From Candidatus Micrarchaeia archaeon (GTDB lineage Archaea; Micrarchaeota; Micrarchaeia; CAILAH01): 48,422 nt of DNA. The first letter of the stretch is position 1; every line of letters starts with the position of its first letter. Both the position numbers and the translations under genes were made by a program. The stretch covers positions 1 through 48,422 of the forward strand of contig JAVYLZ010000003.1 in the NCBI GenBank assembly GCA_038740245.1, written 5' to 3'. Under the pieces are notes generated by a model, which did not search any database, was not told the DNA's origin, and saw only the letters and a program-made list of their open reading frames with translations. This document shows positions 23,514-43,100 of this stretch, piece after piece.

Positions 23514-23535
23514 AAAATGGATTTTGTATAAATGA

Positions 23536-24000
23536 ATTTAAGCATTAGGTATGCGCAATACAAAGGGGGGTGCGTTTGAAGCTGGCTTGATGGCATGTTT
23601 TTCATTTAAATCAATTTAATCCCGCTTTTTCTGCTAAATCACATTTAATCAAGCTGTTTTTGACTATTACGATTATTATAGTTTATTAATTCCTCAAAAA
23701 TGCTCCTTTGTTTTATTTTTTGCTAAAAAACGCTTTCTTATGTTTTTTAGCATTTATGCTTTTACCGACGTAATATGCTGTTGCAATATAAAAAAATGCC
23801 AAAATTCGTATGAAAAATCCAAAAAAATTTGAAAAGTGAATTAGGGCTTAACGGTCCTTTTTAGGCAAAAAAGGATTTGGCGTATCCAATTAAAATAAAA
23901 ATGGCAATTAAACCTTCTTTTGAAGTGAATACGAAATTTACTGGTTCTTTTTTCCAATAAACAAATCTATGGGCGTTTTTTGATAAAATCGCTTAAAAGC
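23536..24000. other. AT-rich noncoding island of about 465 bp
   Basis: No ORF of 60 aa or more lies on either strand. The region is visibly far more AT-rich than its flanks. It has many A/T tracts, a G6 run at 23565-23570 and inverted repeats. Confidence 0.6.
23721..23752. repeat. Perfect 11-bp inverted repeat with a 10-nt spacer
   Basis: The sequence is TGCTAAAAAAC-gctttcttat-GTTTTTTAGCA. A second, 8-bp inverted repeat, TCCTTTTT-aggca-AAAAAGGA, lies at about 23855-23875. Confidence 0.9.
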
Positions 24001-24059
24001 TAATGTTTAAATACGTTCAAAGCATTTACTTTGATATGGGAGTGCTTCGCTCAGTAAAA

Positions 24060-26059: not shown

Positions 26060-26695
26060 TCAGCCGATAAGTTCGGCAATCTCATTGGCCGTGAGCGGCC
26101 CAACGGCGGCCTTATTGCCATACACGATTGTGGGGTACTCAGACACACCGTACTTCTTGCACAATGAAACGGCAATCGGGCTGTCAATGGTGCAGTCAAA
26201 GGAATAAACCCTGATGCGGGTGGCAAGGATGTCCTTTGCCTTCAAAAGCTCGCGGCCCTGTATGATGCACTTGTCGCCGCACTCCTTGTTGGAGTAAAAG
26301 TAAAGCACATCCTTATGGCTGCTGCCGCACGCATCGCGCATCCTGCTGCTCATCAGGAAGGACGCATACTCAAGCAGGAAATACTTGTCCTTCAATTCAG
26401 GGTCCGAAAAGCCCTTATTCTCCTCAAGGTAGGCAAGCTGGTAGCCGAGCTGCTCAGTGTCAGCATCAATCCTGCCCAGTTCCGAGCTGTAAAAATCGCA
26501 GAACTGGCTGTCATTTTCCATAAGGAAAAAAATCTGCATTGCGAGTGCATTGCTTGAGAGCTGTGATATCCTGCCCTCAATGCTTTCACCAACAATCCCG
26601 TCATATACTGTGCCAAGCATAAAGCCGACCGCAAACACCACTACGGTTATAACGAACGCAAGCACATACAGCGGCACATTCATCCTCCTTTCCAT
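26060..26695 (-). CDS. N-terminally anchored thioredoxin-fold-like protein
   Basis: The TM anchor is VPLYVLAFVITVVVFAVGFMLG. The C-terminal region has YFYSNKECGDKC and a cis-Pro-like EYPTIVYG. The CxxxC spacing is atypical, so this call is tentative. Confidence 0.45.
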   Translation of the reverse strand: MERRMNVPLYVLAFVITVVVFAVGFMLGTVYDGIVGESIEGRISQLSSNALAMQIFFLMENDSQFCDFYSSELGRIDADTEQLGYQLAYLEENKGFSDPELKDKYFLLEYASFLMSSRMRDACGSSHKDVLYFYSNKECGDKCIIQGRELLKAKDILATRIRVYSFDCTIDSPIAVSLCKKYGVSEYPTIVYGNKAAVGPLTANEIAELIG

Positions 26696-26699
26696 ATCA

Positions 26700-27905
26700 T
26701 CACCACGTCATTTTCTCCCTGAATGCCTCCTTGGCAAAGGCTGCCAGCCAAAACAGCGTCACAAGGTACGAATATGAGATTACATAAAGTATTACATCAA
26801 CGCCACTAATCCCCTCCTCCCTGAAATACTGGATGCCCATGTATATCCACCACAGGTTGATGAAGAAAAGGAGCATCCCGACAAAGGAAGTCCAGTTCAG
26901 GTTGAGCATAAGCAAAAACGCACCGGACTTGAGCGCATACGGCGGTGCAAACAGCCAGTACAACCCGACCATTATGAACACGGCAAACAGCAATGTGACC
27001 GCAACAAGCGTGAGCGGCATCACAATCATGCCCATATCACCATATCGCGGTCCGATCATCTCAAGGTATTTCAGCGAGTTGTGCAGGCCGCCCCTGTGCC
27101 ACCGTATCCTTTGCTTCAGCAGCTCGCCGAACGTATACGGGACCTCTGTGTAGACATCCGCGTCCATCGCAGAGCATATCTTCATGTTGTGCTTCTGCAT
27201 CCTCATGGCAAACTCCTGGTCCTCAAGTATATTCTTTTCATCAAAATAGCCTATGCGGTCAAACACTTTCCGCCTGAACAGGCTGAACGGGCCCGGGGTT
27301 ACATTAACAGCATCAATAAATGACAGCATCTTGCGGGAGAAAAGTGTAAATATGTATTCCGTCCGCTGTATTGAAGTTAGAAAATTGCTGCCCCTATGCG
27401 AGTAGGCTTTTACACTGGCTGTTACCGCCATAACCTCAGGGTCAGAAAAATACGGCAGCATGTTCTTGAGAGCACTTGGCGTAACATAAGAGTCGGCATC
27501 AAGCGTTGCTATTATATCCCCTGTTGCACGCTTTATGCCATAGTTCTTGGTGCCCGCAGCATTTCCCCCGTTCGGCTTTGTGAATGCGCGCACGCCCCGC
27601 TTTTCGTACTTTTTTGCAACCTCGTACGTGTTGTCCGTTGAGCCGTCGTCCACAACTATTATCTCAAGCCTGTTTTTTGGGTAATCCAGCGCAAGCAGTG
27701 ATTCTATGCACCGCGGGAGCGTGTCCGCCTCGTTGTATGCGGGCACTACCACAGATACCTTGGGCCTAAACTTGGGGTCCGCACGCGGCTTTTTCAGCAC
27801 CTGGCTCTCGTGCTTGAAATACAGCAACGCGTAAAAGACCGTTATGTACAGTGCAACGAAAAGCACCACCATCTCTATTATGCGTATCTCAGTTGGCAGC
27901 AGCAT
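26700..27905 (-). CDS. Membrane-integrated family 2 glycosyltransferase, processive type with a QxxRW motif
   Basis: Motifs present: VSVVVPAYNEADTL, VVDDGSTDNT, LDADS and QRIRWHRG, flanked by TM segments at both ends. ATG 27905 was chosen. Confidence 0.85.
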   Translation of the reverse strand: MLLPTEIRIIEMVVLFVALYITVFYALLYFKHESQVLKKPRADPKFRPKVSVVVPAYNEADTLPRCIESLLALDYPKNRLEIIVVDDGSTDNTYEVAKKYEKRGVRAFTKPNGGNAAGTKNYGIKRATGDIIATLDADSYVTPSALKNMLPYFSDPEVMAVTASVKAYSHRGSNFLTSIQRTEYIFTLFSRKMLSFIDAVNVTPGPFSLFRRKVFDRIGYFDEKNILEDQEFAMRMQKHNMKICSAMDADVYTEVPYTFGELLKQRIRWHRGGLHNSLKYLEMIGPRYGDMGMIVMPLTLVAVTLLFAVFIMVGLYWLFAPPYALKSGAFLLMLNLNWTSFVGMLLFFINLWWIYMGIQYFREEGISGVDVILYVISYSYLVTLFWLAAFAKEAFREKMTW

Positions 27906-27968
27906 CCGCACTAAATACGCAGGCAAACATTTATAATTGGGGGCGATGAATGGGGCTGCCAAATTGCA

Positions 27969-27983
27969 AATAGTTAAAAGGGG
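27969..27983 (+). promoter_or_regulatory. TATA-box-like element upstream of tRNA-Arg
   Basis: AAATAGTTAAAAGGG is centred about 28 nt upstream of the tRNA 5' end (28005). Confidence 0.4.
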
Positions 27984-28004
27984 GCGTGCACCATAATATC
28001 CTGG

Positions 28005-28185
28005 GGCCCGTGAGGTAGCCTGGATAGCCTACAGGGCTTCGAATGCCCCTCCGCACCGTGCGGAGCACGGGGGTTACCCTGGAGTATGGGTTCAAAGCAG
28101 GGGATCTGCCGCCCCTGCAACCCCAGGCAAGTGCTTGGTGTTGCGATGCGGCTGATTTGCTCATCGGAAATCCCATCGGGCCCGT
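28005..28185 (+). tRNA. tRNA-Arg (anticodon UCG) with two introns: 28044-28076 at position 37/38 and 28098-28171 at position 59/60
   Basis: Hand fold: the acceptor stem GGGCCCG/CGGGCCC pairs 7/7. D-arm is AGGT-AGCCTGGATA-GCCT. Anticodon stem is CAGGG/CCCTG with loop CU-UCG-A..A. T-stem is ATGGG/CCCAT with loop TTCAAA|intron|T. The discriminator is G. Confidence 0.75.
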
Positions 28186-28290
28186 TTCTAATTTTTGCCC
28201 GTAAATTTGTATTTCAATTCCGCGTCAGCGGAATTACCAGGGGGTGCGGGGAATGGAATGCCCCGCATCGGGCCCGTTTCTAATCTTTGT
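28175..28290 (+). repeat. 24-nt direct repeat (1 mismatch) duplicating the tRNA-Arg 3' end plus flank, with copies 92 nt apart
   Basis: CATCGGGCCCGTTTCTAAT(T/C)TTTG occurs at 28175-28198 and 28267-28290. The segment between holds the hairpins AATTCCGC-GTCA-GCGGAATT (28217-28236) and GCGGGG-aatggaatg-CCCCGC. Confidence 0.9.
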
Positions 28291-28332
28291 TACCAATTTT
28301 CGCAATTGAAGCCGTCGGGCATGTGTGATATA

Positions 28333-28342
28333 TTTATATAAT
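28333..28342 (+). promoter_or_regulatory. TATA box upstream of tfe
   Basis: TTTATATAAT lies about 30-38 nt upstream of ATG 28371. Confidence 0.5.
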
Positions 28343-28370
28343 AGCGCTGCCTAAAATAGGCGTGTGCGCT

Positions 28371-28937
28371 ATGGATGATACCAAGAAATTCATAGGGCGC
28401 GAGGGAATACAACTGTTTTTGAAATCGGTTGGAGGGGAACTCGCTCCAAAGCTCGTCGCAAATATGCTTGAGCCGATCAGCGATGAAGACCTTGCAGAAA
28501 AATGCAACATGCGCGCAGCGGATGTGCGCATGGTGTTAAATAAACTTCACAGCAAGGGCATCATTGACTACAACAGGTCCAAGGACAAGGACAGCGGCTG
28601 GTATTACTACGGGTGGTTTTTGCGGCCTGACAAACTGTTTGAGGCGTATGTTGAGCACAAGAAGCGCGACCTTGAGACCATAGAGGAGCGCCTTGAGAAC
28701 AACGAGATGTACAGCGTCTACATATGCAGGAAATGCGAGCAGACCTATGATTTTGACAGAGCTTCTGAACTGCTATACCACTGCCCCCTCTGTGAATCCA
28801 TCCTTGACAGGAGCATCACTGAGGATGACCTTAGGCGAATGTCAAAGATATCTGCGGCCATAAAGAAGGAAATTGAGGAGATAGGCAAATTCTCCTCTCT
28901 GCTTAACAAAAGATACAAGTCAACAAAAGTGCTATGA
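28371..28937 (+). CDS. tfe: Transcription factor E (TFE, TFIIE-alpha homologue)
   Basis: The winged helix reads ..ISDEDLAEKCNMRAADVRMVLNKLHSKGIIDYNRSKDKDSGWYYYGW. The zinc ribbon is CRKCEQ...YHCPLCES. Confidence 0.85.
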   Translation: MDDTKKFIGREGIQLFLKSVGGELAPKLVANMLEPISDEDLAEKCNMRAADVRMVLNKLHSKGIIDYNRSKDKDSGWYYYGWFLRPDKLFEAYVEHKKRDLETIEERLENNEMYSVYICRKCEQTYDFDRASELLYHCPLCESILDRSITEDDLRRMSKISAAIKKEIEEIGKFSSLLNKRYKSTKVL

Positions 28938-28979
28938 TTATAAATTGCACTTCCCTAACTTTCCCTGAAAGGTGTTCTT

Positions 28980-30302
28980 TTGGAACTTGACCTTGGCAGG
29001 CGCATACGCGGGGCCATTGCGGCGTTTACGGGCAAGGCGCTTATTGATGAAAAGGCGGTTAAGGAACTGGTCAGGGAGCTGCAGCGCACGCTCATAAGTG
29101 CTGATGTTGAAGTCCACCTTGTCCTGAAAATAACCAAGGAGATTGAGCGGAAGGCGCTGGAGCTTGAGGCGCACAAGGACCTTGCGATACGCGAACAGGT
29201 TGTAAAAATCGTTTATGATGAGCTTGTAAGCCTGCTTGGGGAAAGCTATGAGCCAACACTTGGCAGGAAAAAAATATTGCTTTTGGGCCTGTACGGCAGC
29301 GGCAAGACCACCACGGCCGGCAAGCTTGGCAAGTTCTACAAGAGCAAGGGCCTGCGCACCGCGGTTATATGCGCAGATACTGACAGGCCGGCCGCATATG
29401 AGCAGCTTGAGCAGGTATGTGCAAAAGCCGGCCTGCCGTTTTACGGCGAGAAAGGGCACAAGGATTCAGTAAGGATAGTGCGGAACGGGCTTGCAAAGTT
29501 TGCAGAGTACGACGTAGTAATTGTGGACTCATCGGGCCGCAGTGCGCTTGATGAATCATTAATCAGGGAGCTGAAAGCGATTGATGAGGAATTGAAGCCT
29601 GACGAGCGGCTGCTCGTGCTCAGCGCTGATATCGGGCAGGTGGCGGGCAAGCAGGCGCAGGCGTTCAATGAGAGCGTGGGGATAACCGGCATCATTGTGA
29701 CAAAGGCGGACGGCAGTGCAAAGGCGGGCGGCGCACTCAGTGCGGCGCATGTTGCCAATGCAAAAGTGATGTTCATCGGCACAGGCGAGCACCTTGACGA
29801 TTTTAGGCCATATGACAGCAAGAAATACGTCGCCAAGCTGCTCGGCTTCCCGGACCTTGAGGCATTGCTCGGCAAGGTCAAGGAAATTGAGAGCGAAATG
29901 AAGCTTGACTCCAAGAAAGTGATGGAGGAAAAGCTCACAATGAAAACGTTCCTTGAGCAGATAAAAGCCGCAAAGAAGATGGGCCCGCTCAAGGATGTGT
30001 TTGCGATGATGGGCGCGCCGGACGTCCCGCAGGAGATACTATCTCAGGGCGAAGACAAGATGAAGAAGTTTGAGTCAATAATAAACTCAATGACGCCTGA
30101 GGAGCGCGAAAACCCGGAATTGCTCAAGAAGGGCAACAGGATTGTGCGCATCGCCAAGGGTTCCGGCACGCAGGTATCTGATGTAAGGGAGCTGCTGAGG
30201 CAGTTTGACATGATAAACAGGATGGTCGGCGGGTTCAAGAGCGACCGGGGCATGCGCAGGAAGCTTGAGCGCATGCTTAAAGGAGGCCAGTTCAAGTTCT
30301 AA
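28980..30302 (+). CDS. srp54: Signal recognition particle protein SRP54
   Basis: The NG domain shows LLGLYGSGKTTTAGKL, DTDRPAAYEQL, VDSSGR and TKADGSAKAGGALS. The M domain reads ..FLEQIKAAKKMGPL... It has an apparent TTG start. Confidence 0.9.
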   Translation: MELDLGRRIRGAIAAFTGKALIDEKAVKELVRELQRTLISADVEVHLVLKITKEIERKALELEAHKDLAIREQVVKIVYDELVSLLGESYEPTLGRKKILLLGLYGSGKTTTAGKLGKFYKSKGLRTAVICADTDRPAAYEQLEQVCAKAGLPFYGEKGHKDSVRIVRNGLAKFAEYDVVIVDSSGRSALDESLIRELKAIDEELKPDERLLVLSADIGQVAGKQAQAFNESVGITGIIVTKADGSAKAGGALSAAHVANAKVMFIGTGEHLDDFRPYDSKKYVAKLLGFPDLEALLGKVKEIESEMKLDSKKVMEEKLTMKTFLEQIKAAKKMGPLKDVFAMMGAPDVPQEILSQGEDKMKKFESIINSMTPEERENPELLKKGNRIVRIAKGSGTQVSDVRELLRQFDMINRMVGGFKSDRGMRRKLERMLKGGQFKF

Positions 30303-30307
30303 AGCGC

Positions 30308-31993
30308 TTACACTTTATAGTCAATTGTGGGGTGCTCGTGGCCCATCCGTTTCCTTGCAAGCAGCTCGCGTATATGCCTCGCCTTCTCTTCTCTGAACCG
30401 CTCCTTGCTTGCACCGTGCAGCTCAATGAGTGATGATGCGTGCCGCCCGCCGAGGAAGTGCGGCATTATGACATAATCGGCACCAGCATCGTAAAGCAGC
30501 ATTGCATCGTCAATCTTGTGCGCTGTGGCTATCAGCACGCAATCCTTTGGTGCACGTGAACGTATAAAATGCAAAAGCATTATTGTGGTGGACACATCAG
30601 GAATTGTTGATACTACCAGCCGTGTTTGTGAGAAGTCAAGCTCCTCCAAAAACTCAACATCGCTCGCATCACCGTAAACAACATTAACGCCGCGCTTCTT
30701 AAGCGATGCAACGATTGCCGGGTCATAATCAACAACAAGATGCTTGCCGGGAAGGCCTTTAAACGACTTGAGCACGTCATACCCTATGCGGTTATACCCG
30801 AACAGCAGCAGCTCGGGGCCTTTGCCCGTGCGCTTTGCCCTTGCAGTGCGCACATGGAACAGCATCTGGTAAATCCCGTCACCATTCGCAATTAGATAAG
30901 ATGAAAGCGTGATTGAGATTAGGCCGACGAGCACCACAAGGACCATCTGCGGGGTGGCAATATAGCCCATCCCCATGCCCACGCCCATAAGTATGAACGA
31001 AAACTCACTTACTTGTGAAAGCGACAGCCCCGTAAGGAATGCAGTGCGCTTGCCATAGCCCATCATGAATATAGGCAATGCTGTTGAGACGAGCTTTATG
31101 AGCATAACAAGAGCGGTGAGCGCAAGTGCGGCTGGCAGCACATTGCTGAGCGACTGCGGTGTGAGCTGGAGCCCGAGCGCAACAAAGAACATTATCAGGA
31201 AGAAGTCCCTGAGCGGCTTAATCCTTGCGGATATCTCGTGCTGGAACTGCGACGTTGAGAGGCTGATGCCCGCAAGCAGCGCGCCTATCTCAATGCCAAT
31301 CCCGAGCAGGCCAAACGCTGCTGAGACCAAAAAGCACCACGCAACCGTGAATATGAATAAAAGCTCCTGCGAGCTTGCCATGCGCGTGATGAGCGGCGGC
31401 AGCACGTAAAGCGAGATTATGCCTAGGGAGGCCAGCACAGCAACCCACTGGAAGAATATGTACAGGTAGTATTCAATGCCCGCCGAGTATGCCGAACTTG
31501 CAATTATAAGCGCAAGCACTGCAACAATGTCCTGCACAAGCAAAATGCCGAGGGATACTTGGCCGTGCAGCTTCTCAGAATCGCCCATATCAGTAAGCAG
31601 CTTCACGACAATTGCAGTGCTGCTGAATGAAAGTGCAACTCCCAGCAGAGTTGATTGCACCAAGCCGATGCCCATGCCAACGCATACCACTGCAACCAGA
31701 AGCGCGGTGAGCAGCATCTGGAGCACCCCGGCAACAACCGATACCTTGCCCAATTTTCCGAGTATTCGCAGGTCTATCTTGACGCCCACGATGAACAGCA
31801 GCAACGCAACACCTATCTCTGAGAATGCGGCAACATGCTCCTGCGGGACCTCAGCAGTGCCCAGCAAAAACGGTATTGATACGCCTGTAAGCAGGTACGC
31901 GATTATTATGGGCTGCTTCAGGATGCGCATAAGCGCTGCAAGCCCTGTCGCAAGCGCCAGGATTATTGCAATATCTATGAACAGTGATTCCAT
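30308..31993 (-). CDS. Kef-type monovalent cation:proton antiporter (CPA2) with a C-terminal RCK/TrkA-N domain
   Basis: It has about 12 TM segments of a Na+/H+ exchanger fold, followed by LLLFGYNRIGYDV....VVDYDP.......G..VVYGDA. Confidence 0.85.
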   Translation of the reverse strand: MESLFIDIAIILALATGLAALMRILKQPIIIAYLLTGVSIPFLLGTAEVPQEHVAAFSEIGVALLLFIVGVKIDLRILGKLGKVSVVAGVLQMLLTALLVAVVCVGMGIGLVQSTLLGVALSFSSTAIVVKLLTDMGDSEKLHGQVSLGILLVQDIVAVLALIIASSAYSAGIEYYLYIFFQWVAVLASLGIISLYVLPPLITRMASSQELLFIFTVAWCFLVSAAFGLLGIGIEIGALLAGISLSTSQFQHEISARIKPLRDFFLIMFFVALGLQLTPQSLSNVLPAALALTALVMLIKLVSTALPIFMMGYGKRTAFLTGLSLSQVSEFSFILMGVGMGMGYIATPQMVLVVLVGLISITLSSYLIANGDGIYQMLFHVRTARAKRTGKGPELLLFGYNRIGYDVLKSFKGLPGKHLVVDYDPAIVASLKKRGVNVVYGDASDVEFLEELDFSQTRLVVSTIPDVSTTIMLLHFIRSRAPKDCVLIATAHKIDDAMLLYDAGADYVIMPHFLGGRHASSLIELHGASKERFREEKARHIRELLARKRMGHEHPTIDYKV

Positions 31994-32017
31994 AGCGGAT
32001 TACATTCATACGGAAAG

Positions 32018-32027
32018 TTTTTATAGA
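32018..32027 (-). promoter_or_regulatory. TATA box upstream of the Kef-type gene
   Basis: The minus strand reads TCTATAAAAA about 25-34 nt upstream of ATG 31993. Confidence 0.5.
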
Positions 32028-32044
32028 TAGGATGCACTAACTCA

Positions 32045-32512
32045 ATAGGCGATGACGACACCACCCCAGATGAGCGCACCCTGTCGCGGCTTGAAGCGCC
32101 GCATATGGGGGTGTTAGCAATGACTGCCGGAGTAACTTCTGAGCCCATGCGAGGATGCTCGCGATAACGCGCTGCGCCGCATTTCCGCTGACGCGGGAAG
32201 CGATGCCTTTGGCTTCGCCAAAAGTGTGCCTCACTGTCCAGCGAATTATTTTTAAAAAATGTTTCTGATAGCTTCGCTTGGTTGTATGGGTTGCGAAGCC
32301 AAGCAAACCAAAAGGTTTGCGGGCAGTGTTGCCGATGGCAACAAGTTGTAGGCATCGCCTACAACCCCTTTCGCGAATGCGAAAGTGTGGGGGCGCTGGA
32401 ACCCACAAAATACGGTTGCTGGGCGTTTTGAAATGACCTTGCAAACTGACGTTTGCTGGCCACACGTGCGGAGCACGTGGTGGACTTCTAGCCCCCTTCG
32501 TTAGGAGTTCTG
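32045..32512 (-). ncRNA. Candidate structured noncoding RNA locus (one or two transcripts); identity and strand are unresolved
   Basis: At least ten short perfect hairpins lie within about 470 nt, and there is no protein-like ORF. A TATA-like ATTATAT (32534-32540) lies just beyond the upstream stop codon. A central T5A6 tract sits at 32248-32259. Confidence 0.35.
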
Positions 32513-32552
32513 AACCAACAAGAATGTTTGCAATTATATGAAATGTACAGGG

Positions 32553-35426
32553 CTAGCCGCAATCATTGCAGGCCATCCCTGCAACATACTTGCAGGCATT
32601 ATTGCAGTGCTCTATCTCATTCCACCCGATTGGCCCCCATACGCACACAATATCGCTGCACGAATCATATAGCGCTGCTGAGCATTCACTGGCGCTTGAC
32701 CCGCTATATGCACCACCCGCAGATGGGCACCACCCAGAAATGCGGTTGTATTCTGTTCCCTCACTTATAATTCCACTTTTTCTCCCAATCTCAAGATAAA
32801 CGTTGCACTGCTGGATAAGGCACTGCGGGCTTATCTGCTTTGGCGGTGCGGCCGCCGCTGGCGGCTCATTGTAAGGGCATCCAGGATCCAGCTCAATCGG
32901 TGAGGAAATAGCAAAAATGGTTTCTTCTGAAGAACCCTTAACGTATCCCTCCCCCATAAGGTATACTGAATCGCCTGCAAGTTGTCTAAGTGCAACATTC
33001 TTGAACGTCTTTGCGTTATTCTCGCACGCCGTGTGCCTCTTGTCGCAGTTTGAATCAAACATGGGCTTTATTTGCATCCAGAATGGATCCTCCACAACAA
33101 ATACTTTTGAAGACAATTCATTGCAAACAACTGACTTGCCTCCTGAACGGCAATTGTAACTTGTGCCTGTGCAGACAGACCCAACATCAAGCGAAAGGCA
33201 TTTTGTTGAGATATTCCCTCCTATCAGATCGCATTTGCTGGAGAGAGCTGCATAACACGAATCTGCATTAGGATACCCAAGAGAAATTGGGTTCAGCCAG
33301 CACGCAATAGTTACGGCTCCAGTGCAGTTATTACGCGTATCCGTTGCGATTGCAATGCACGAGTTGTAGAAGCACTCGTTGAACATCGCTTTTTGCGAGA
33401 ACACTAGCATATTCTCAACATTTGTTGATTCTGAAACAATGACCTTGCCGGTGCACCCTTCCTCGGCGCGCATCTCAAACAGCTTGACGCGCTTATCGCC
33501 TTCACCGAGGTATGAGCACCCTGAATAGTACGTGGACTCTATGGCGGACTTTGAGCCGTATATCAGTGGCTGGCCGCGGTATACCACAAGAGGGGTGTTG
33601 GTGCCTGCAAGTGTGCGCATAATATTTGCAAGATACTTATAGCCAAGCTTCCATCCTTCAGAAGATGAAAGGCCGGCAATGAACGAGTCATATGCTGGGC
33701 GCGTTACATTCCCTTTCAAATATTTCTCAAGCAGAACTTTCTCCTCGGCGCTGAGCTCGGTTTCAGAGTTGATGCATTCGGCCGGGGGCGCAATGCTTAC
33801 CACACGGCACGAGCCGTCTGTGCACACATCCTCCATACATTTGCGGTCCTCCTCATCAACTTTGTTGTCGTCGTTGAAGTCATACCGCTTGTCAAATTGC
33901 TTGAGCGCAAGGAACTGGTCAAACAGCTGCAGGTCATAGCCGTCTATGTAGGTGTCGCCGTTGAGGTCATATGTTGCGCCGTTTGGGTTGCACTGCTTCA
34001 TGCAGTCCAAGCATATCTCAGGAGGGCCCTGCTCAAATATCTGGAGGTCAAGACCGCTTTGCAGGTATTCATTATATTCTTGCGGCACGAAAATGTTCCA
34101 ATTATAACCATCGCTCGTGCACGAATAAAGCAGTTCTCCAAGAGTACATGGTTGCTGCAGCATTATGATTTCATCGCATACGATCTCAATGCATGTGTCA
34201 TCTCCGTTTGAATCCGCAAGATTATCTGACCCAGTACCGCCGCACGTGCCTGAGCCAATTTCCATGCACTTCTCAAGCGGCCCGCACTTTGACGGGTCAG
34301 CCTTGCACTGGGGGGATGCGCACGAGTCATCGCACACGTACCCAGCGGGACACGTGTTGCACATCTGCTTGCAGGAGTATGCGGTCTTTTCTGGGGAAGT
34401 GGGCGTGCACACCGCATCAGGGCAGTTTATCTCAACTGTGCCGTCGCTTATTGTGCAGAGCTGGCCGGCCTGCTCTGCAGTGCATTCCTTATCCACACAG
34501 GATGCGCACGCGCCTGTCTTTGGGTCCTTGCACCCAGTCCCCTCACAGGACTCATCGCATACAAAGCCGGCAGGGCACTTGTTGCATACCTCCTTGCACA
34601 CAAACGCGGACAGTGAAGTGTCTGTGGGAACGCACAGCGTATCAATGCACGGGTAAGAGCCGCCCTTGTCGGATGTTATCTTGCAGTATTCGCCCGCCTG
34701 CCACTGCGCTTTTGTGCACGGCTTGTCCGTGCATACCATACAGCTGCCGTCAGAAAGGCAGCAGCCGTTCGGGCACTGCTCACACACATAAGACCCAGGA
34801 AGACCGCAGGATTGTTTGCAGGTATGCTTTTTCAGTGCAGTGTCATAAACGCACGTTGAGGGTATGAGGCAGCCTACACAGTTGCCGGAAGCATCACATA
34901 CCTCACACGGCTCGCCCGCTTTTTCACAGGGCAGTGACTCGCACGTGAGCGGCTCGCACCTGCCCTTTGAGTTGCATGCATATCCATCACAGCATGAGTT
35001 GACATCGTTGGGGTTGCACAGCATCCCCTTTTCACAGGGCTCGCACTTGGACTCGGCGTTGCAGGAGAACCCGTTACAGCAGGGGCTTGACTCGCTGCAA
35101 GTATCTGGATTTACGCATACGTTCTGCGTGCATTCCGCCGGATTATCTATTTTGCAGCATATCCCTTTTCCCTTGTCAAGGTAATATCCTGCACCACATT
35201 TTAGATAGTCGCAATATTCAACGTAATTCCCCTCTTTGTCCTGCACACAGCAGCCGCACTCGCTTGAGTACCCCGCTGGGCACTGGACCGCCTCAGGCGG
35301 GCAGCCGCTGCCGCCTACACCTTGCAGCATCCATAAAATTGCAAGCGCAATTATCACTAGGAGTATAAGCGCAATCAGGGGCCTGAAATCCGCTGTTCCT
35401 TCCTGGTCGCTTCCCATAAGCATCAA
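32553..35426 (-). CDS. Secreted or anchored hyper-cysteine protein (957 aa) with a dockerin-like Ca-binding repeat pair and a C-terminal globular domain
   Basis: The N-terminal hydrophobic segment is PLIALILLVIIALAILWML. Dense Cys modules run to about aa 545. The sequence DLNGDTYIDGYDLQLF...DFNDDNKVDEEDRKCM resembles a dockerin repeat pair. The start overlaps the upstream stop. Confidence 0.7.
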   Translation of the reverse strand: MMLMGSDQEGTADFRPLIALILLVIIALAILWMLQGVGGSGCPPEAVQCPAGYSSECGCCVQDKEGNYVEYCDYLKCGAGYYLDKGKGICCKIDNPAECTQNVCVNPDTCSESSPCCNGFSCNAESKCEPCEKGMLCNPNDVNSCCDGYACNSKGRCEPLTCESLPCEKAGEPCEVCDASGNCVGCLIPSTCVYDTALKKHTCKQSCGLPGSYVCEQCPNGCCLSDGSCMVCTDKPCTKAQWQAGEYCKITSDKGGSYPCIDTLCVPTDTSLSAFVCKEVCNKCPAGFVCDESCEGTGCKDPKTGACASCVDKECTAEQAGQLCTISDGTVEINCPDAVCTPTSPEKTAYSCKQMCNTCPAGYVCDDSCASPQCKADPSKCGPLEKCMEIGSGTCGGTGSDNLADSNGDDTCIEIVCDEIIMLQQPCTLGELLYSCTSDGYNWNIFVPQEYNEYLQSGLDLQIFEQGPPEICLDCMKQCNPNGATYDLNGDTYIDGYDLQLFDQFLALKQFDKRYDFNDDNKVDEEDRKCMEDVCTDGSCRVVSIAPPAECINSETELSAEEKVLLEKYLKGNVTRPAYDSFIAGLSSSEGWKLGYKYLANIMRTLAGTNTPLVVYRGQPLIYGSKSAIESTYYSGCSYLGEGDKRVKLFEMRAEEGCTGKVIVSESTNVENMLVFSQKAMFNECFYNSCIAIATDTRNNCTGAVTIACWLNPISLGYPNADSCYAALSSKCDLIGGNISTKCLSLDVGSVCTGTSYNCRSGGKSVVCNELSSKVFVVEDPFWMQIKPMFDSNCDKRHTACENNAKTFKNVALRQLAGDSVYLMGEGYVKGSSEETIFAISSPIELDPGCPYNEPPAAAAPPKQISPQCLIQQCNVYLEIGRKSGIISEGTEYNRISGWCPSAGGAYSGSSASECSAALYDSCSDIVCVWGPIGWNEIEHCNNACKYVAGMACNDCG

Positions 35427-37087
35427 CCTACCACTATCTCCTTCGGCGCTGTAAAGCAGTTATTAATCTTATTTAGGAGACAAAACTTTTCCAGCTTAGT
35501 GCAGAAATTCCCCCCTACTTCTTCCTTATAATTTGAGACAATATATTCATACGGAGATATCATTGAGGTATCCACCCCAAAAACCGAGCCGTCCTTCTTA
35601 TAGAAAGTATACTTGTGATTATTCGGCCCGAGCTTTTCATACTGTGCACGCAAGCATACATAAGTCAGTAAAGTAGTTCCCTTAGTGACGTAAGCATAGC
35701 CGGACTTGCATATATCCGGGGGCACTTGGAGAGCACCTGCAGGCAAACCGTCATTAGGCACTATGTAAATGCAGCATTTTGATGGGTCCTTGGTGCACGC
35801 AAACGTCCCCCATTCGCACATAAGGTTCGGCGGTGCATGGCAGAACTCCTTTTTACCGGAGGGCGTGTCAAACACCATGCACGAATCGCCCACCATTGGC
35901 GCACCGGTGCATCCCTGCGGGCACTTGAACGTGTTTGGTGGGCATACGCTTACCGTCTGCGTGCCGTATGTGCAGCACGTGCACCCCTGCACTGTTTTGC
36001 ATGGATGGCCGCCTTCACCGCACGCACACTGCCCTGTGAACGCATCACAGCACCCTGTCGGGCATTCAGCAGTGTCGCAGGCGACCTGCCCCTCCGAGCA
36101 GCCGCCCTTCGGCTTGCACACAAACTCGTTTGCTGACTTGTCCTTTGCCGCGCATACCGTATTGTCGGTGCACTTTGAGCACTTATCGCTCCCAGTAGAG
36201 CAGAGCTCGCACGGCTCACCGGGGTTTGTACAGGGAGCGCCTTCACAGTTGCCAGTATATTCACAGCTACCCATTACACACACGCCGCCCGCACAGCACT
36301 CAGAATCCTTTGAGCATGATTTTTCACAGGACTCACATACCTTCTTCTCAAAATTGCAAGCGTAGCCGTTGCAGCATGGGTTATTTTCATCACAGTACGC
36401 GCCTTCCTTGCAGCCGGCACACTTGCCGTTCACGCACTGGAACCCGTCGCACGCGCACATCTGGCCCTGTAAAGGATTGCACGATGCAACGCAGTTCTTG
36501 CACGAGCCGGAGATGCACGCCCAGCCGTCACAGCAAGCACCGGGCTCACCTGGGTTGCAGGCCTTCTCACATGAAGTGCACTTGCCAAGATAGCATTCAT
36601 ATCCGCTGCAGCAGTCCTTAGCGGCGGTCTCAAGCATGCACGGCTTTGCCTCACACGCAGCGCACTTACCGTTAAAGCAGCTCATCCCGGAGCAGCAAGG
36701 GTTCTGCTCATCGCAATATGCGCCCTGCTCGCACCCCTTGCAGTCGCCGCCCTCGCATTTGCTGCCCGCACAGCAGTCGGAATCAGATTTGCAGGGCTCA
36801 ACTGCCACACATACAGCTGGACCTGATGCACAATCCTGCGGGTTTGACAGCGAGCAGCATTTGCCGTCCATGACCGCATACCCGCTGCACGATTTGCATA
36901 TATCAACGGAGCCGTCCGCGTTCTGGACACAGCAGCCGCACGGGCTGTCCGCACACGCATACGAGCCCTCAGGGCACTGTGCGCTGCTTGATGCACACAA
37001 CGCCTGCACTATCAATAACGCAAGCACGCCCGCACCAAGCAGTGCAAGCAGTTTCAGGCCGTTGTCATCCTCATCGCCAAGAGCCAT
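35423..37087 (-). CDS. Secreted hyper-cysteine protein (554 aa) with tandem knottin-like modules; paralog of the 957-aa protein
   Basis: The signal-like N-terminus is LKLLALLGAGVLALLIVQALCASSSAQ. I hand-counted about 86 Cys. There are at least seven tandem modules of the form C-x5-8-CC-x-G-x2-C-x2-3-G-x-C. Confidence 0.7.
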   Translation of the reverse strand: MALGDEDDNGLKLLALLGAGVLALLIVQALCASSSAQCPEGSYACADSPCGCCVQNADGSVDICKSCSGYAVMDGKCCSLSNPQDCASGPAVCVAVEPCKSDSDCCAGSKCEGGDCKGCEQGAYCDEQNPCCSGMSCFNGKCAACEAKPCMLETAAKDCCSGYECYLGKCTSCEKACNPGEPGACCDGWACISGSCKNCVASCNPLQGQMCACDGFQCVNGKCAGCKEGAYCDENNPCCNGYACNFEKKVCESCEKSCSKDSECCAGGVCVMGSCEYTGNCEGAPCTNPGEPCELCSTGSDKCSKCTDNTVCAAKDKSANEFVCKPKGGCSEGQVACDTAECPTGCCDAFTGQCACGEGGHPCKTVQGCTCCTYGTQTVSVCPPNTFKCPQGCTGAPMVGDSCMVFDTPSGKKEFCHAPPNLMCEWGTFACTKDPSKCCIYIVPNDGLPAGALQVPPDICKSGYAYVTKGTTLLTYVCLRAQYEKLGPNNHKYTFYKKDGSVFGVDTSMISPYEYIVSNYKEEVGGNFCTKLEKFCLLNKINNCFTAPKEIVVG

Positions 37088-37129
37088 ACATATTGCACCT
37101 TACTATTATACATTCCAACTATCATCTTC

Positions 37130-40100
37130 CTACTTGCACTTATATTTCTTGTAAAGCGCCATCATTTTTGAGCCGTCGCACTGCGTGCCCTCCTGCCCCT
37201 CAGGCACCTTCCTGTCGCTGAATGTCAGGAGCGATTGCGGCACACCTCCGTAATAATAGCGGCCGCACTGGTCAAACCACGCGCGCGTGTAGGGATCCTT
37301 GCTGTAAGTATTCGGTGGCAACACTGCGCCCGGATCAACGCTTCCTGCACCAATGCCGCCGCCTATCCCCCCCAAGCCTGGGAGGCTGCCGCTCCCGCCT
37401 AAACCGCCCAAACCGGGTATGTTGCCCGCACCTAATACTATGCTAGAGCCTAAATTATTGCCTCCAAACAGCGAGCTAAGGCCTGACATGCCCGCAAACT
37501 GGAACCCGCCTCCTCCGCTTGTGCCACTAATATCAACCAAATTCCCATATTTAAACAGGAGAGATGCGCCCTTGTCCGAAGAGCTCTGGAATGACCAGGC
37601 GCCAACTTTCTGCGAGCCATCAACCCCACCCTGCCCAAATGGAAGCTTGTAGAAAGAAGAGGTGGTGTAATAGAGGCCATAATCACTGCCGGCAGAATAT
37701 GTTGATACGGGCGTGCACGCACCGTCTATCAGGCAGTATTGACCAATACCAATCACCCCTGAACCGGCAAGCATTATGAAGTCCTCTTCATATAGCTGCT
37801 GCACCTGTTCCATAATCTCATCGTGCGTCCAGCACGATTGCCGCTCGTCCATATTCCGGTTCAGCCCAAACCCAAGTATTATTGACGGGATGTCATAGTA
37901 TTTCATAGCATATTCTGAAACGTTGCGTATCCCGTCCAAGTAGTTTGTAAGCTTGCACTGGCCCCTGTATCCAGGCCCGGGGTCATCTATTACAATAACA
38001 AACCCTATCAGGTCTATTGATTCATTTTCTTCAGATTCCACAGCAAGCTGTATCCGAGTGCGCCTAAACGTCTCATTTATCGTCTCTTTCATTGCATTTA
38101 TTTCACGGTTCGTGAGCTTTGTCCCATTAACATGTATGTAGAACGGCAATGTGGATATGCAGCGCTGCATGCGCACGGTGTTATTGCCGGGGCAGTAATA
38201 GCTGTATTCGCATTTGGCGTTTGCATTGCTGCACTGTATTGCCCCCCCATCCTTCTTGCACTGGTCCTTTGGTATTGTGCTGTCGCACATCTTTGTTGCG
38301 CCTTCCCAGTAACAGCAGCATCCTTCTTGGTTGTAATCCTTATAGCTTATGTTCTGCTCAATGTTCTCGCTCTTCGCACCATCAGTACCATCCTTAGGAA
38401 CTTCACACAGCGAATTATCACTATACCCTGTTGCCTGCCTGCAAGTTATCTCTATAGTAGCAATTTGGCTCGCCAGGCCTTCAAACACTAATGTCTTGCT
38501 CACACCGCTTCCGGATGGATATTTTATGTGCGAATTTGGCTTGGTTGTGCTGTCTGCACCCGTACCGCCGCTCCATATGGGGGGAACTTTAACTTCAATT
38601 TCGGTAGGTGCAGAAGATTCAAATTCATTGCCAGGATATGATTCGCCCGCACCGAGCTCAACAAGGCCGTCTACACTCACAAGCTCCGCGGTTATTATTG
38701 CAGGTGTTGCCGGCGCGCGCGGATTCAATTGCAGGTTCTCATATGCGGGATTGTCATAGCCGGGCTTAGGCTCGCTGATGGCCTTGGTTATGTTGGCAAG
38801 CATATTTACTGATTCTGTGCCGCCAACACTTTCCTCGGTGGGCACAAGCCACTGTGAAGTAAGCCCATCCTTAAAGCCGGCTTTGGCATTCTCCACAGGG
38901 ATGCACTTGCGCTCGCCTTTGCTTAGCGTAATCGTTTCAGGGGATGTTCCACCTGTAACCACCTCGCGTGAGTCGCGGCTGTAATCCATATTGGTTATGC
39001 ATACGCCCGTTGTTGCACCTTGCGTTATGCTAATGCTTGAAGGGTCAAACGTGTTCATGTTAAGCGAGACCTGCGTTACAAGGCGCTCAACAAGCACGTA
39101 AATCCTCCTGCCGCTGTGCGGGTTGTAAAGCATATACTTTGCCGCCCTCTCATTAGGATTCAGCGATAGTTTCAACAAGTGGGTGTCGCCACTTGAAATT
39201 GAAGCGCGTGAATAACCATAAGAAGACATGCGTGCAGGTGAATTGAGGTAAGTGTCAATGTCCCTCGGGCTTATTGAGTAATCGTTGTAGTTATTTATGC
39301 AATTAGCATAGTTTGTGGTGCCATCAGCGTTTTTCTCACCAAAGCACGCTGCATTCATCCTGTCAGAAACCAGTTTCTGGAGGTCGTTTGATTGGCCGCA
39401 GGGGTCAACCTTGCCTAAGTACCATACTGCAGTGTCAGGCCCGATATTTCTAAGGGTAAACGACGAACCGTCTGGCACTACTATCTCATCGCCGACCACA
39501 TTCACTGTCATATTGTAAAGGTAAATTTTGACAATATCTTTTGAGATATCCGCAGAATAATTTCTGTATCTCCGTCCACCATCCGGGAATGTTGGGATTG
39601 AATAGCTTACAGAGCCAAGCTTTGTGTCTTCCAGCTTCTTCACGAAAGGCGATATGTGCGAAAACACACTGGTAGCAACTTTCATCTCTATTGTGCCGGC
39701 AGGATCTATCGGAACCTCATTATAACTGCCCACCAGCCCCGCATAATATGCCGGCTCATAAACCGCAAACGTGCCCATCACTTCAGGTGCATACTGCTTC
39801 TGGCCCAGCGGCGGTATTATGTCCTGTATGCCGTTGTATGTATCCTTGCCGTAGCACATCACTTTTATGCCTTTTTTGCTCTTTACCGTAAAGGTCTGTG
39901 TGAGCACATAACCCTTCCCCTGCTCAAGAATCTTTGCGCCTAAATACTCCGATTCGGCAAATTTGTCGGTTGCACTCTCAATGTCATTTATGAGGTAGAG
40001 ACGGCCGCCAGTGAACGCAGTTACAGGTATGCTGCCATACCTCGGCACTGCATAATTGTTTGGGTGCACGTATGTTTCTGTGCATTCGCACTTACCATTA

Positions 40101-43100
40101 TTATTGCTAGATCCAAGCTTGCACATTGAGCACGTGCTCGTAATGGTGCCGCTTACTGGGTCAAACCCGGGCAGCACATACTCATAATATGCGGGCTTAC
40201 CTGCCGGCTGGTCTACAAAATCATATATCTTGTCCTTGTTGTAGTGGGGCTCGTTTGCGTATGGTGTTGCCACAATTTTTGCGAGATCATATTCTGACAA
40301 ATCGGTTCTCGGAACTTTAACCCATACGCCATAATCATCAGACTTGTGGCCGAAAGGCGCAGGGTTTGAGCGGCACCACCACACATCATATGAGTTGCTG
40401 CAGTCTTTATGGTTCATGCAGCCATTAAAGCACTCCGCCTCACCGCTGCAAGAATCTTTGCAAAATTCCTCAAGCGTGCCGCACAAAGTTCCAAACTGGC
40501 TGTAAAATACCGAGCTACCATCTATAATATCACAGTCCTCCCCGCATTCATTGAAATCAATCTCAAGCTCGCAATAATCGTTACCACTGCCTGTATTATC
40601 ACATAGTCTATTCCCTGCTGTATCATACCCACAGAAATAGTTATCATTATTATAATCACTCATTAAGCCACCGCTACCTGGCAGGGGCTCCCATACTCCC
40701 TTATCATTAATCCATCTCTCAATCTTTGGCCCGTTATTCTTTTCGGAATCCTCGCTATAATTAAGCTGGCCCGGAGTAAACGTGAGCCCGCCTTCTGTTA
40801 TCAGCTCACCGTTTGATACACGAATCCGCCTCCAGTCTGGATTGTCCGGGTACTGGAATGTTAAGTACTGGCCGCTCTTATATACGCTAATGTCCCCAAC
40901 AATCTGCGGCAGGATTGGATATGACGGCGCACCGTTTTCTGAGGATGAATGGATGTAATCAATTTCATTAGAGTAATCAAGAGGCATTACAAGTTGGCCA
41001 CCTGAAGTTCGTGCGACTATAATTGGCCAGGCGTATGAAAAGTCCTTGGTTTTCTTTATTGTGCCGGACATATTGAATGGCACATACATGCTCTTCTTTA
41101 CAGCAGCAGTTTGATAGTCCTCCTTAGTAGCATAGTTCCACCATATCTGTGGATACACCGACCTGCTCTTGTTAATTACTATTGAGCCACGCCACACATC
41201 ATAATACTCCAGGTTAAAGAGCTCATCGTTTATGCTCCACGTTGGGTTGGGGGATGGCGGCAGCCGCCTTAACAGGACACTATAGTCCCCAACATTATTT
41301 ACCCCAAAAAGAAGATAGGGCGCGCCATCTTTGGATTTAACTTGTTGATTGCTGAACAGCCGTACCGTATACGCTGATTTTGTGTAGTTCAGGTTGCTTA
41401 TAAAGCCTGGCGCAAGCTGCAATGAACTGCCGTACACTTTTGCGTAAGTACTTTCTAAAGGAGTTCCGGAAATGAAAGGTACAAGCGCAGTAACTTCATT
41501 TTGGCCCACAAATGGCCTATTCAAGTATGCGTTTATGTTAGTGTACCCCATATTGGGCAAAAGCTCAATGTCTGCAAGCTTTTTTGCCGTGCCTACATAT
41601 TTGTCATGGTTCTCCAAAGCATCCAGTATTGCAACAGGAACTGAATAAAGCTCCATATTGTAAGCCGTGTAATAATCATTCGCACCTGCGATATTAAACT
41701 CGTTTTCAGCGTCTTGGCGGATCATTGTGCAGTATTTGGATGGATCATCAGGCCTAAGCATAATCGCACGCGGCTCAAAAGCAAGGTTTTGCACGCTGAG
41801 CGCATAATTATTACGTGATTCGGGTGGGCTAACACTATACTCATCATAAGAGAAGTTGAGCTCCTGCACGGGCTTGACTGGTTTTAAGATTATTTTCTTG
41901 GTTGCCGAACCCTTGGTTAGAGTGAACACAACTTCCTTGTCTGGCATGTCAAACTCCCAGCGCACGCATTTCGGAAACAGGAAATCTCCAACCTTAACCA
42001 TTCTTGATTCGCTGCAAGGTATCTCAGGAGACGACGACACAACTGCATTCACATCATCAAGCGTTACGTTGACAAGTGAGCCGACCACCGCACTGTAATT
42101 CTCCTCCTCAGTCGGGTTCTTCAGCACAACTTCGGCATCGCCTATCCGTGAATACAGGAACACCGGCAAGCTTTGGTGGTAGGCGAGCATTTCGCGTGCC
42201 TTCATAAGCGTATCCTCATCAGGCACACCTGATATCACCTGCACTCCGAAATCAAGCGGGCTTTCACCAACACCCTGCCGATACTCAAGCGCGCTTTTAT
42301 CAGACGGCTTTATAATCAAGAGCCCTAACTGCATAAACTGCGTTTTCTCTGTAAGCTTGATGCCAGAACCGCCGCCAATAAGCGGCCTCCCTGAAACATC
42401 ATATCCCACCGGTACGTTGCCATAATACCCTGCAACAGCTGATGTGACATTGCCTTGCAATGATTTTGTTTTCCCGCTCTCAAAGACAACCTGTGTTCTT
42501 GAAAACATTGAGCTAAAATCAACATAAGTGCTGTTTTGGTCAAAAGTGTTTTTGTTTGGGTTATTTCTACCAAGCGTAAGACGGTTGCCATCCTCCTTCA
42601 AACAAAGAGTTTTATTTTCATAAGGCAAAATATAACTCTGAGAAACAAAGCCAGATATGTAAAGTGTAACTGTCTCATTGATGTTGTTTTTAACTATGAT
42701 GCACGGGGATAACGGCTGCATATAGTTCGTTGCAAACCCGCTGTCGTAAATGTTAAGCTCGTTGTAAACAGTGTAATCATAGTCATCAACGTTCGTGACC
42801 GTAATGCTGCCATGCGAAGATGCACCGGTTATCTCTTTTGGCGGCGGGATATCAATCTCCAAATAGGATGGAATCATCTTACCGTTTACAATATACCCTG
42901 CATTGGGCGGGCCAACCGCCACAAGCACGTTGACGCCGCTTTCATTGTGCCGCATTAAGTAAAGGCCTTCTTGATCCATGGTAAAACAGGACATATCATA
43001 TGCCTTTACGGATAAGACCCTTGCACCCGTTTTTAGAAGTTCTGCCGATGTGCTTGCGAGCACTGACGACTTTGTAACTTTTATTGGCCCGATTATTGTG

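Follow-up and report, generated by a model that had tools for sequence, protein, structure and literature searches.

A 559-nt gap on a contig of a Candidatus Micrarchaeia archaeon (JAVYLZ010000003.1, positions 1 to 48,422, a stretch referred to here as the window) separates a Kef-type antiporter gene, which starts on the minus strand with an ATG at 31993, from a cysteine-rich (Cys-rich) operon on the same strand, whose stop codon is at 32553 and whose adjoining gene encodes a protein of 957 amino acids. The gap is best read as a composite, with a probability of about 70%: its left end carries a box C/D small RNA (sRNA) gene, and the rest is a lineage-specific spacer between convergent units, consisting in part of hairpin units that recur in a transfer RNA (tRNA) intron of the same genome. 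An earlier, sequence-only reading had proposed that the dense hairpins of the gap represent one or two structured RNAs that could not be matched to a C/D-box RNA. One conserved small RNA gene is indeed present, although it is limited to 32048-32145, where the left end parses as a box C/D sRNA with conserved boxes and guides; the proposal does not hold for the multi-hairpin core at 32148-32552.

The assignment of 32048-32145 (plus strand) as a box C/D sRNA of 98 nt is made with high confidence, on the basis of conserved boxes, conserved guides and a covarying hairpin. A terminal stem GGC/GCC (32048-50 with 32143-45), invariant in the homologues, encloses a C box AUGACGA (32052-58), an 11-nt D' guide CACCACCCCAG (32059-69), a D' box AUGA (32070-73), a 45-nt kink-turn hairpin termed here the insert (32074-32118), a C' box AUGACUG (32120-26), a 12-nt D guide CCGGAGUAACUU (32127-38) and a D box CUGA (32139-42), all on the plus strand. 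The insert absorbs two of the features noted earlier: the hairpin at 32086-32102 is its upper stem, and GGGGGTGTTAG at 32107 is the 3' arm of its lower stem. The latter sequence had been proposed to pair with the far end of the gap. A closing helix over this distance (32107-32117 with 32488-32496) can be drawn on paper, but its 5' arm pairs locally within the sRNA hairpin as CACCC/GGGUG, a pairing with covariation support; the helix was therefore rejected and is probably coincidental.

An A/T-rich element resembling a transcription factor B recognition element (BRE) and TATA box, AAAGTTTTTATAGATA, is found at 32014-32029. In every sRNA homologue, whatever the orientation of the sRNA relative to its neighbours, about 22 nt separate this element from the GGC at the 5' end. 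This placement suggests that it is the promoter of the sRNA on the plus strand. Judging from its distance to the ATG, it probably also serves the Kef-type gene, which is leaderless and on the minus strand.

The conservation of the sRNA was assessed on contigs around relatives of the window's SRP54 gene (L081/L082, L084/L085, L086 and L097) and on L100, a 5.6-kb contig found by a search with the Kef-type protein, whose own Kef-type protein (P0242) is 90% identical. When the whole gap was used as a query in blastn and nhmmer searches, only window positions 32009-32151 were matched in the syntenic loci. A metagenome scan with the 3' motif of the sRNA returned true homologues at four loci (L087, L088, L089 and L094), along with six chance matches. 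The sRNA is kept at every related Micrarchaeota locus found, namely L081/82, L084/85, L086, L087, L094, L097 and L100, with a compact form in L088/89. It is identical at 96 of 98 positions between the window and L100, and in L081/82 and L084/85 the sRNA and its TATA element are inverted as a unit relative to the Kef gene, yet intact.

Nine distinct homologues share a single parse: terminal stem, C box, a guide of 11-12 nt, D' box, insert, C' box, a guide of 12 nt, D box and stem. The boxes and terminal stem are invariant across the nine, with position 5 of the C box alone varying; D' reads AnGA (CUGA in L088) and C' reads nAUGA, their GA dinucleotides being invariant. The guide spacers measure 11 nt (12 in L088) and 12 nt if C' is counted as a 7-nt box. 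The consensus of alignment A1 runs TTTTTATA, about 22 nt, and then GGCGAUGAnGA-ACCACCCCAG-AnGA-GC[variable]GC-nAUGA-nnn-CCGGAGUAACUn-CUGA-GCC; in alignments A1 and A4 the TATA element, boxes and guides are all invariant. The compact form in L088/L089, 57 nt long, has the order GGC-U-AUGAUGA-AACCAUCCCAGU-CUGA-UAG-UGUGAUGA-CCGGAGUAACUG-CUGA-GCC and, by its sequence, is a textbook archaeal box C/D sRNA.

The insert is the variable part of the molecule. Its length ranges from 4 to 45 nt across the homologues, it folds as a hairpin in every case, and its base, GA-GC[stem]GC-nAU-GA, has the standard geometry of a kink-turn. Thus, this clade has a true kink-turn, its canonical stem being long, where C' and D' are usually joined by a K-loop. 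RNAalifold analysis of four long versions identified six pairs changed on both sides, all of them within the insert hairpin (for example, CACCC/GGGUG against AGCAGC/GCUGCU, and GCGGC/GCCGC against GCAAC/GUUGC).

The RNA is a new addition to the box C/D family, unusual in the expansion of its C'/D' kink-turn. In common with other archaeal box C/D sRNAs, such as the Pyrococcus sR families, it has a C box AUGAnGA, a D box CUGA, a 3-bp terminal stem, D' and C' boxes, guides of 11-12 nt, a TATA promoter of its own and dual guides, both with predicted targets in one ribosomal RNA (rRNA) domain. It differs from them in that, in the clade of the window, the usual C'/D' loop of 3-8 nt is replaced by a kink-turn hairpin of 11-45 nt, the RNA is 64-98 nt long, D' is degenerate (AnGA) and no Rfam family covers it. 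A relaxed search of the sRNA alone against Rfam gave no family above threshold; the sub-threshold matches on its plus strand are to the CD-box families SNORD95, sR39 and sR38.

Candidate targets were sought in E. coli rRNA, used as a proxy for the rRNA of the host; neither the window nor the fetched loci yielded any rRNA. Of the 12 positions of the D guide CCGGAGUAACUU, 11 are complementary to E. coli 23S 2434-2445, a match equalled by 19 of 2000 shuffled guides (p ~0.01). For the D' guide, complementarity to 2248-2259, in the P loop, extends to 10 of 12 positions, which 449 of 2000 shuffles also reach, so that this match is not significant alone. Both E. coli sites lie in domain V of 23S rRNA, around the peptidyl-transferase centre. 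In the guide variants of the window and of L088 alike, an A faces position 2254, in keeping with a U there in these archaea. By the N+5 rule, and in E. coli numbering, the predicted targets are approximately U2438 for the D guide, G2252 for the D' guide and G2251 for the second target in L088; G2251 is the position of a widely conserved Gm. Scans of viral contigs for the archaeal 23S target site found nothing. Taken together, the complementarities suggest that the sRNA guides 2'-O-methylation in domain V of 23S rRNA near the peptidyl-transferase centre.

The density of hairpins in the gap is real. All of the hairpins listed in the sequence-only reading were recovered within 1 nt of their positions, by reading the sequence and by mechanical re-finding of perfect stems. 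Between 32041 and 32545 there are 12 calls of perfect hairpins (stem of at least 6 bp, loop of 3-6 nt), corresponding to seven distinct hairpins, against a mean of 0.57 +/- 0.84 and a maximum of 5 in 1000 dinucleotide-preserving shuffles and a rate of 0.93 per 505 nt across the whole window. Perfect hairpins are thereby about 20 times commoner in the gap than in shuffled sequence, and the densest 250-nt hairpin bin of the entire window begins at 32250. Folding is likewise far stronger than in shuffles, with minus-strand and plus-strand z scores of -6.5 and -5.2 for 32253-32515 and of -6.9 and -3.4, respectively, for the whole gap. The strand cannot be assigned from folding because most of the stems are perfect palindromes, with Watson-Crick pairs and no G-U pairs, that fold either way. 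Other elements of the earlier description were also borne out. The long open reading frames of the gap give translations that are not protein-like, and tblastx and tblastn searches against the relatives revealed no coding remnant; the T5A6 tract is present at 32249-32259 and the ATTATAT motif at 32533-32539.

In contrast to the sRNA, the hairpin core is not conserved. Alignment of L100 with the window gives 84.6% identity over 28266-32147 and 79% over 32554-34022, with no similarity between the two. The similarity ends at about 32147, two bases past the 3' end of the sRNA, and restarts at the stop codon of the Cys-rich gene. The intervening spacers are unrelated in sequence and measure 147 nt in L100 and 406 nt in the window. 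L084 has no spacer whatever at this position, while in L081/82 and L097 a KaiC-like ATPase gene is found there. The possibility that the window's spacer is a decayed copy of that gene was rejected, as neither tblastn nor tblastx against all loci detected a remnant.

Wider searches gave the same result. No homologue of the hairpin block was found in the 100 fetched loci, a profile of the three hairpin units found no copies outside the window in any of them, and the loci that carry sRNA homologues from the metagenome scan do not carry the block. BLAST against plasmid and phage collections returned no match for the island, and a pattern scan of viral contigs for a two-hairpin module gave one chance match inside a coding region. 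The sequence-only reading had made presence in related genomes the test of a conserved, covarying hairpin RNA; by that test the core (32148-32552) is refuted as such an RNA, since neither the closest relative nor any other syntenic locus has it. Because the spacer is not conserved even in a close relative, the hairpin block is lineage-specific and cannot be a housekeeping RNA. We consider it very probable that the core is not a conserved structured RNA and, by parsimony, it would have been gained recently.

What the hairpin block does resemble lies elsewhere in the window. A blastn search of the island against the rest of the window produced a match at 4316-4386, on the opposite strand, inside a tRNA-Ile(UAU) gene with two introns (plus strand; exons 4137-4175, 4232-4253 and 4407-4420). 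The first intron, at 37/38, is 56 nt long (4176-4231); the second, in the T loop at 59/60, is 153 nt long (4254-4406) and serves as the reference copy of the hairpin units. Unit I2 of the spacer (32262-32350, minus strand) comprises the hairpins UGUUGCC-AUC-GGCAACA, GCAAACC-UUUU-GGUUUGC and GCUUCGC..GCGAAGC and is homologous to the 3' part of the 59/60 intron. Read from 32350 to 32262 it has a local score of 52 against the intron, where shuffles give 15.6 +/- 2.9 (z = 12.5; reverse z = 1.3), and a blastn E value of 3.7e-4. Unit I1 (32416-32500, minus strand) contains GAAGGGGGCUAGAAGUCC, a bulged 11-bp hairpin CCAC-CACGUGC-UCC-GCACGUG-UGG and a hairpin GCAAAC-GUCA-GUUUGC, and is homologous to the 5' and middle part of the intron: the local score from 32500 to 32416 is 49, with 16.3 +/- 3.1 in shuffles (z = 10.5; reverse z = 1.8), and the blastn E value is 0.016 (alignment A2). 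A degenerate third copy of the GCAAAC hairpin, recognized by eye without statistics, is found at 32510-32539 on the minus strand; it includes UGCAAACAUUCU, 12 nt identical to the tRNA-Ile intron, and overlaps ATTATAT.

The common architecture has a bulged hairpin of about 11 bp; after it come UGGCC, then a GCAAAC-N4-GUUUGC hairpin, and then a tail of the form CGCAnCCC..CAACCAAGC. The stems of the bulged hairpin differ by compensating changes, with CAUGCGC/GCGCAUG against CACGUGC/GCACGUG. Hairpin units of this kind are seen at two loci within 48 kb, in addition to tandem copies inside the intron. The spacer copies have no flanking exons and, in a custom scan, no recognisable bulge-helix-bulge (BHB) boundary. 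The earlier advice to look for multi-intron tRNAs was of indirect help: the island, itself no tRNA, is homologous to a non-canonical tRNA intron of the window. To our knowledge, no previous case is described of an intergenic spacer homologous in sequence to a non-canonical tRNA intron. It is a single lead with some novelty, and its basis is one genome and two loci.

The stretch from 32146 to 32248 on the plus strand, which is not conserved and contains hairpins at 32149-32162, 32183-32199 and 32208-32222, folds weakly better than shuffles (z = -2.5 on both strands) and is probably the 3' trailer of the sRNA precursor, extending up to the first T run. This run belongs to the T5A6 tract (32249-32259), which presents T5 on the plus strand and T6 on the minus strand. 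Between the two intron-like units there are three stem-loops, at 32345-32365 (9 bp), 32368-32385 (7 bp) and 32389-32407, that together span 32345-32407 and have no detectable paralogue; this middle segment shows no significant similarity to the tRNA-Ile intron. The hairpins at 32206-32228 and 32367-32389 are alike, with a compensatory G/C swap in the stem.

Introns at position 59/60 appear, from the sequences compared, to turn over extremely fast. In the tRNA-Ile orthologues of L098 and L099 the exons and the 37/38 intron are kept, and the 59/60 introns are unrelated, with lengths of 45 nt (L098, 1064-1107) and about 140 nt (L099, 9494-9636). L098 comes from the same sample as L100. As the tRNA-Ile intron is unrelated in close relatives and the spacer is unrelated in L100, both of the window's loci gained related units after divergence. 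A second two-intron gene, tRNA-Arg(UCG) (28004-28184, plus strand; introns 28044-28076 and 28097-28170), has a 59/60 intron that begins with a related motif, GCAGGG..CCCCUGCAACCCC. The first 54 nt of this intron are 98% identical to an intron-like sequence in L099 (2869-2921), which is tandemly repeated there and appears to sit in a different tRNA-like context.

The tRNA-Ile gene is missed by ARAGORN and by Rfam at gathering thresholds, and the tRNA-Arg gene is missed by standard tools. Removal of the introns in silico restores canonical tRNAs, and ARAGORN then calls both, as tRNA-Ile(tat) and tRNA-Arg. Two further observations concern the structure of these loci. The T-loop intron of tRNA-Ile is an internal tandem duplication; its second copy includes an additional module of two hairpins, about 48 nt in length and bordered by GGCC. 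The 3' end of tRNA-Arg and its trailer ATCGGGCCCGTTTCTAAT are repeated about 90 nt downstream (up to 28291), with a hairpin AATTCCGC-GTCA-GCGGAATT between; the repeat could be a scar of integration or rearrangement, or an alternative 3' exon.

ARMAN-2/Micrarchaeum is known to have non-canonical BHB introns at 59/60, cut by epsilon2, a splicing endonuclease of broad specificity (PMC3239211). The window agrees with this in that its tRNA-Ile and tRNA-Arg each have a 37/38-region intron and a 59/60 intron, and units I1 and I2 of the island are sequence homologues of one such intron. The differences are that the island copies lie outside any tRNA, without exons or a BHB boundary, and that the introns of the window are far longer, at 74-153 nt, than the examples of 13-25 nt given for ARMAN-2 (PMC3239211). 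Related intron sequences at different loci and rapid turnover between close relatives are features of a different comparison. Gain of tRNA introns by transposition of conserved intron sequences was reportedly proposed for the Thermoproteales by Fujishima et al. in 2010, and the window is similar in both of these features; it is unlike that proposal in that one copy here is in an intergenic spacer, outside any tRNA gene.

The composite reading can be set out as follows. The A/T box at 32014-32029 would drive transcription of the 98-nt sRNA on the plus strand. By analogy with archaeal C/D ribonucleoproteins, the sRNA would bind L7Ae at two kink-turns, the terminal one formed by C and D and an internal one formed by D' and C', in which the 45-nt hairpin takes the place of the K-loop, and would then recruit Nop5 and fibrillarin. 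The two invariant guides of 11-12 nt would direct 2'-O-methylation of 23S domain V. The following 406 nt (32148-32552) would act as a spacer between convergent units, the sRNA on the plus strand and the Cys-rich operon on the minus strand, with the T5A6 tract terminating both through oligo-T. Oligo-T termination is established in archaea, and L100 has an A7/T7 tract in its equivalent spacer. In this lineage only, stem-loops that are short and very stable would have come to fill the spacer, and at least two blocks of them would be copies of tRNA-Ile intron units. The intron-like units have the same sense as the operon, so that the simplest reading of the hairpin block is as the operon's 3' untranslated region (UTR), which would cover about 300 nt between the stop codon and the U6 run. 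The stem-loops may have a generic role there, such as protection of the 3' end or insulation of the two units, and nothing suggests a sequence-specific function. The roles as 3' UTR and terminator are much less certain than the sRNA itself.

Several points weigh against this account. The strand, the ends and the termination are read solely from T runs and motifs that resemble promoters, and the hairpins fold far beyond chance (z ~ -6), with a TATA-like box upstream on the minus strand. The methylation targets rest on the proxy rRNA of E. coli, and the match of the D' guide falls short of significance by itself. No paralogue is identified for about half of the spacer (32146-32248 and 32351-32415), the hairpin pair at 32206-32228/32367-32389 excepted. 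Finally, no terminal inverted repeats, target-site duplication, transposase or integrase were found in the 48-kb window.

The strong folding could instead indicate that the hairpin block encodes a structured non-coding RNA in a gene that is young and specific to this lineage, about 255 nt long and on the minus strand, extending from the TATA-like motif (32533-32545) to the U6 run (32253-32258) and using exapted tRNA-intron units for a function of its own. The z score of -6.5, the TATA-like motif at a plausible distance, the oligo-U at the end and the single orientation of the units, as transcription of the minus strand needs, are all in keeping with such a gene. However, the plus strand folds nearly as well (z = -5.2), the stems being perfect palindromes, and the supposed promoter lies only about 10-20 nt past the operon's stop codon, so that read-through from the operon explains transcription equally. 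Together with its absence from the closest relative and all syntenic loci, and from the fetched loci and the plasmid and phage collections, this makes an independent gene unlikely. The homology of the block specifically to a tRNA intron, in one orientation, could also be that of a decayed 3' remnant of a tRNA gene with a 59/60 intron, left by a duplicated attachment site or a rearrangement, for example, and without present function. A T-arm-like sequence, GGUUCAGAA, does precede unit I1 on the minus strand. At the tRNA-Arg locus, moreover, the 3' end is duplicated and one hairpin is almost the same as 32183-32199; tRNA-associated rearrangements therefore occur in this genome. Yet no acceptor, D-arm or anticodon-arm remnant and no T-stem partner is seen on either strand. 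The island also lacks the sub-threshold Rfam tRNA match that the disrupted tRNA-Ile still gives, if weakly. A scan for a T arm (TTCRA loop) with an acceptor stem and introns of up to 450 nt, which recovered both control tRNAs, found none in 31900-32760 on either strand. There is no flanking integrase or foreign gene, and the Cys-rich operon is syntenic in all relatives, which leaves a tRNA remnant distinctly improbable.

The same scan and ARAGORN, which found no tRNA in the gap or anywhere in the window, speak against a disrupted or split functional tRNA, as the sequence-only reading had considered, and the whole gap is hardly plausible either as a divergent housekeeping RNA such as RNase P RNA or signal recognition particle (SRP) RNA, permuted or intron-split versions included. 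The window does encode SRP54 (28980-30302) and an Rpr2/Rpp21 protein (~4438-4773) whose partner RNAs were undetected by Rfam in the window, the lineage tolerates non-canonical BHB introns (PMC3239211), and a permuted SRP RNA in Thermoproteus is among the cases cited in PMC7994747. Nevertheless, none of 4227 Rfam models, those for RNase P and SRP RNAs included, matched the window at gathering thresholds, and at E <= 10 the sole match on 31900-32700 (801 nt) was a chance one, to a fragment of a Drosophila long non-coding RNA. An essential RNA at this locus would not be replaced by unrelated DNA, as the sequence is in a relative whose flanking genes share 79-85% DNA identity, and the probability of this explanation is minimal. 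Perfect Watson-Crick palindromes without G-U pairs, around a central A/T tract, would also be expected of protein-binding sites acting at the level of DNA, whether an operator array, an origin or recombination or transposition sites of a hairpin-recognising transposase. The proposal of a palindrome array does not survive inspection of the palindromes, which differ in sequence save for three copies of GCAAAC..GTTTGC, one of them degenerate, and the A/T tract is merely 11 bp long. There is no Orc1/Cdc6 gene, ORB-like repeat, transposase or integrase nearby, and the units are strand-specifically homologous to an intron that is transcribed and spliced. A replication origin or operator array was accordingly rejected for want of repeated boxes, and DNA-level sites in general are very unlikely.

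The spacer of the composite reading bears some resemblance to bacterial repetitive extragenic palindromic (REP) sequences, bacterial interspersed mosaic elements (BIME) and repeats of the miniature inverted-repeat transposable element (MITE) type. Like these, its stable stem-loops are clustered 3' of the last gene of an operon, vary between close relatives, occur at more than one locus and could stabilise a 3' end. Unlike them, they are known from two loci in 48 kb, with no consensus unit beyond about 60 nt at about 75% identity, and are accompanied by no terminal inverted repeats, target duplication or RAYT- or IS200-type transposase; the host, moreover, is an archaeon.

The locus is set in a largely conserved neighbourhood. 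The SRP54 protein is 70-78% identical to proteins labelled Candidatus Micrarchaeia or Micrarchaeota, and the order SRP54, Kef-type gene, Cys-rich operon is common to L081/L082, L084/L085 and L097; the L086 contig stops shortly after SRP54, so that the order is not seen beyond that gene. A scan of GTDB genomes with the Kef protein found homologues at no more than 43% identity, in lineages of the candidate phyla radiation (CPR) and DPANN, which were of no use for synteny. Exact look-ups of the Kef and SRP54 proteins encoded in the window returned no entry. The Cys-rich operon itself (32553-46159, minus strand) encodes very large secreted or surface-type proteins of 3009, 554 and 957 amino acids with only weak Pfam matches (Dockerin, Cupredoxin). 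Its position is kept in L081, L084, L097 and L100, and it diverges fast (79% DNA identity to L100). A KaiC/RadA-like ATPase gene (233-241 amino acids) lies between the sRNA and the operon in L081 (13342-14067), L082 (13482-14207) and L097 (14022-14723) and is absent from that position in the window, L100 and L084. Its presence in some relatives and absence from others mark the intergenic position as a hotspot of gene gain and loss.

Further afield, L081, L084 and L097 have TFIIE-alpha, a glycosyltransferase gene, a gene of about 215 amino acids and SRP54 in this order on one strand. In the window (26060-28361) the glycosyltransferase gene and a gene of 211 amino acids are inverted and upstream of TFIIE-alpha, with the tRNA-Arg locus at the junction. 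The Rpr2/Rpp21-type RNase P protein gene (4438-4773, plus strand) is directly 3' of the disrupted tRNA-Ile gene; RNase P RNA was not detected by Rfam in the 48-kb window. Between an RNase HII gene and a SpeH-like gene there is a non-coding stretch of about 500 nt (23520-24040) with about 30% GC, compared with a window average of about 52%. It is rich in A and T runs and might be an origin of replication, a region with many promoters or DNA of foreign origin.

Overall, the locus is ordinary to moderately interesting. It adds a conserved methylation guide RNA to the Micrarchaeota, a DPANN group with almost no annotated small RNAs, and this RNA has a probable target in the peptidyl-transferase centre and a C'/D' K-loop that has grown into a long kink-turn hairpin. 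It also shows that a convincing hairpin island (z ~ -6) can be unconserved spacer, which calls for caution in scans based on structure only, and that standard tools overlook both of the two-intron tRNA genes of the window. The strand-specific homology between the spacer and a hypervariable tRNA intron offers a concrete lead on the turnover of archaeal tRNA introns. A possible, if doubtful, reading takes the hairpin block as the donor, or else as a free-standing copy, of 59/60 tRNA-intron sequences that form a mobile family and move as hairpin units. If so, the BHB introns of Micrarchaeota would move between tRNA genes and intergenic or 3'-UTR DNA, and this locus and the hypervariable tRNA-Ile intron would represent a recent transfer, informative on the mechanism by which archaeal tRNA introns are gained.

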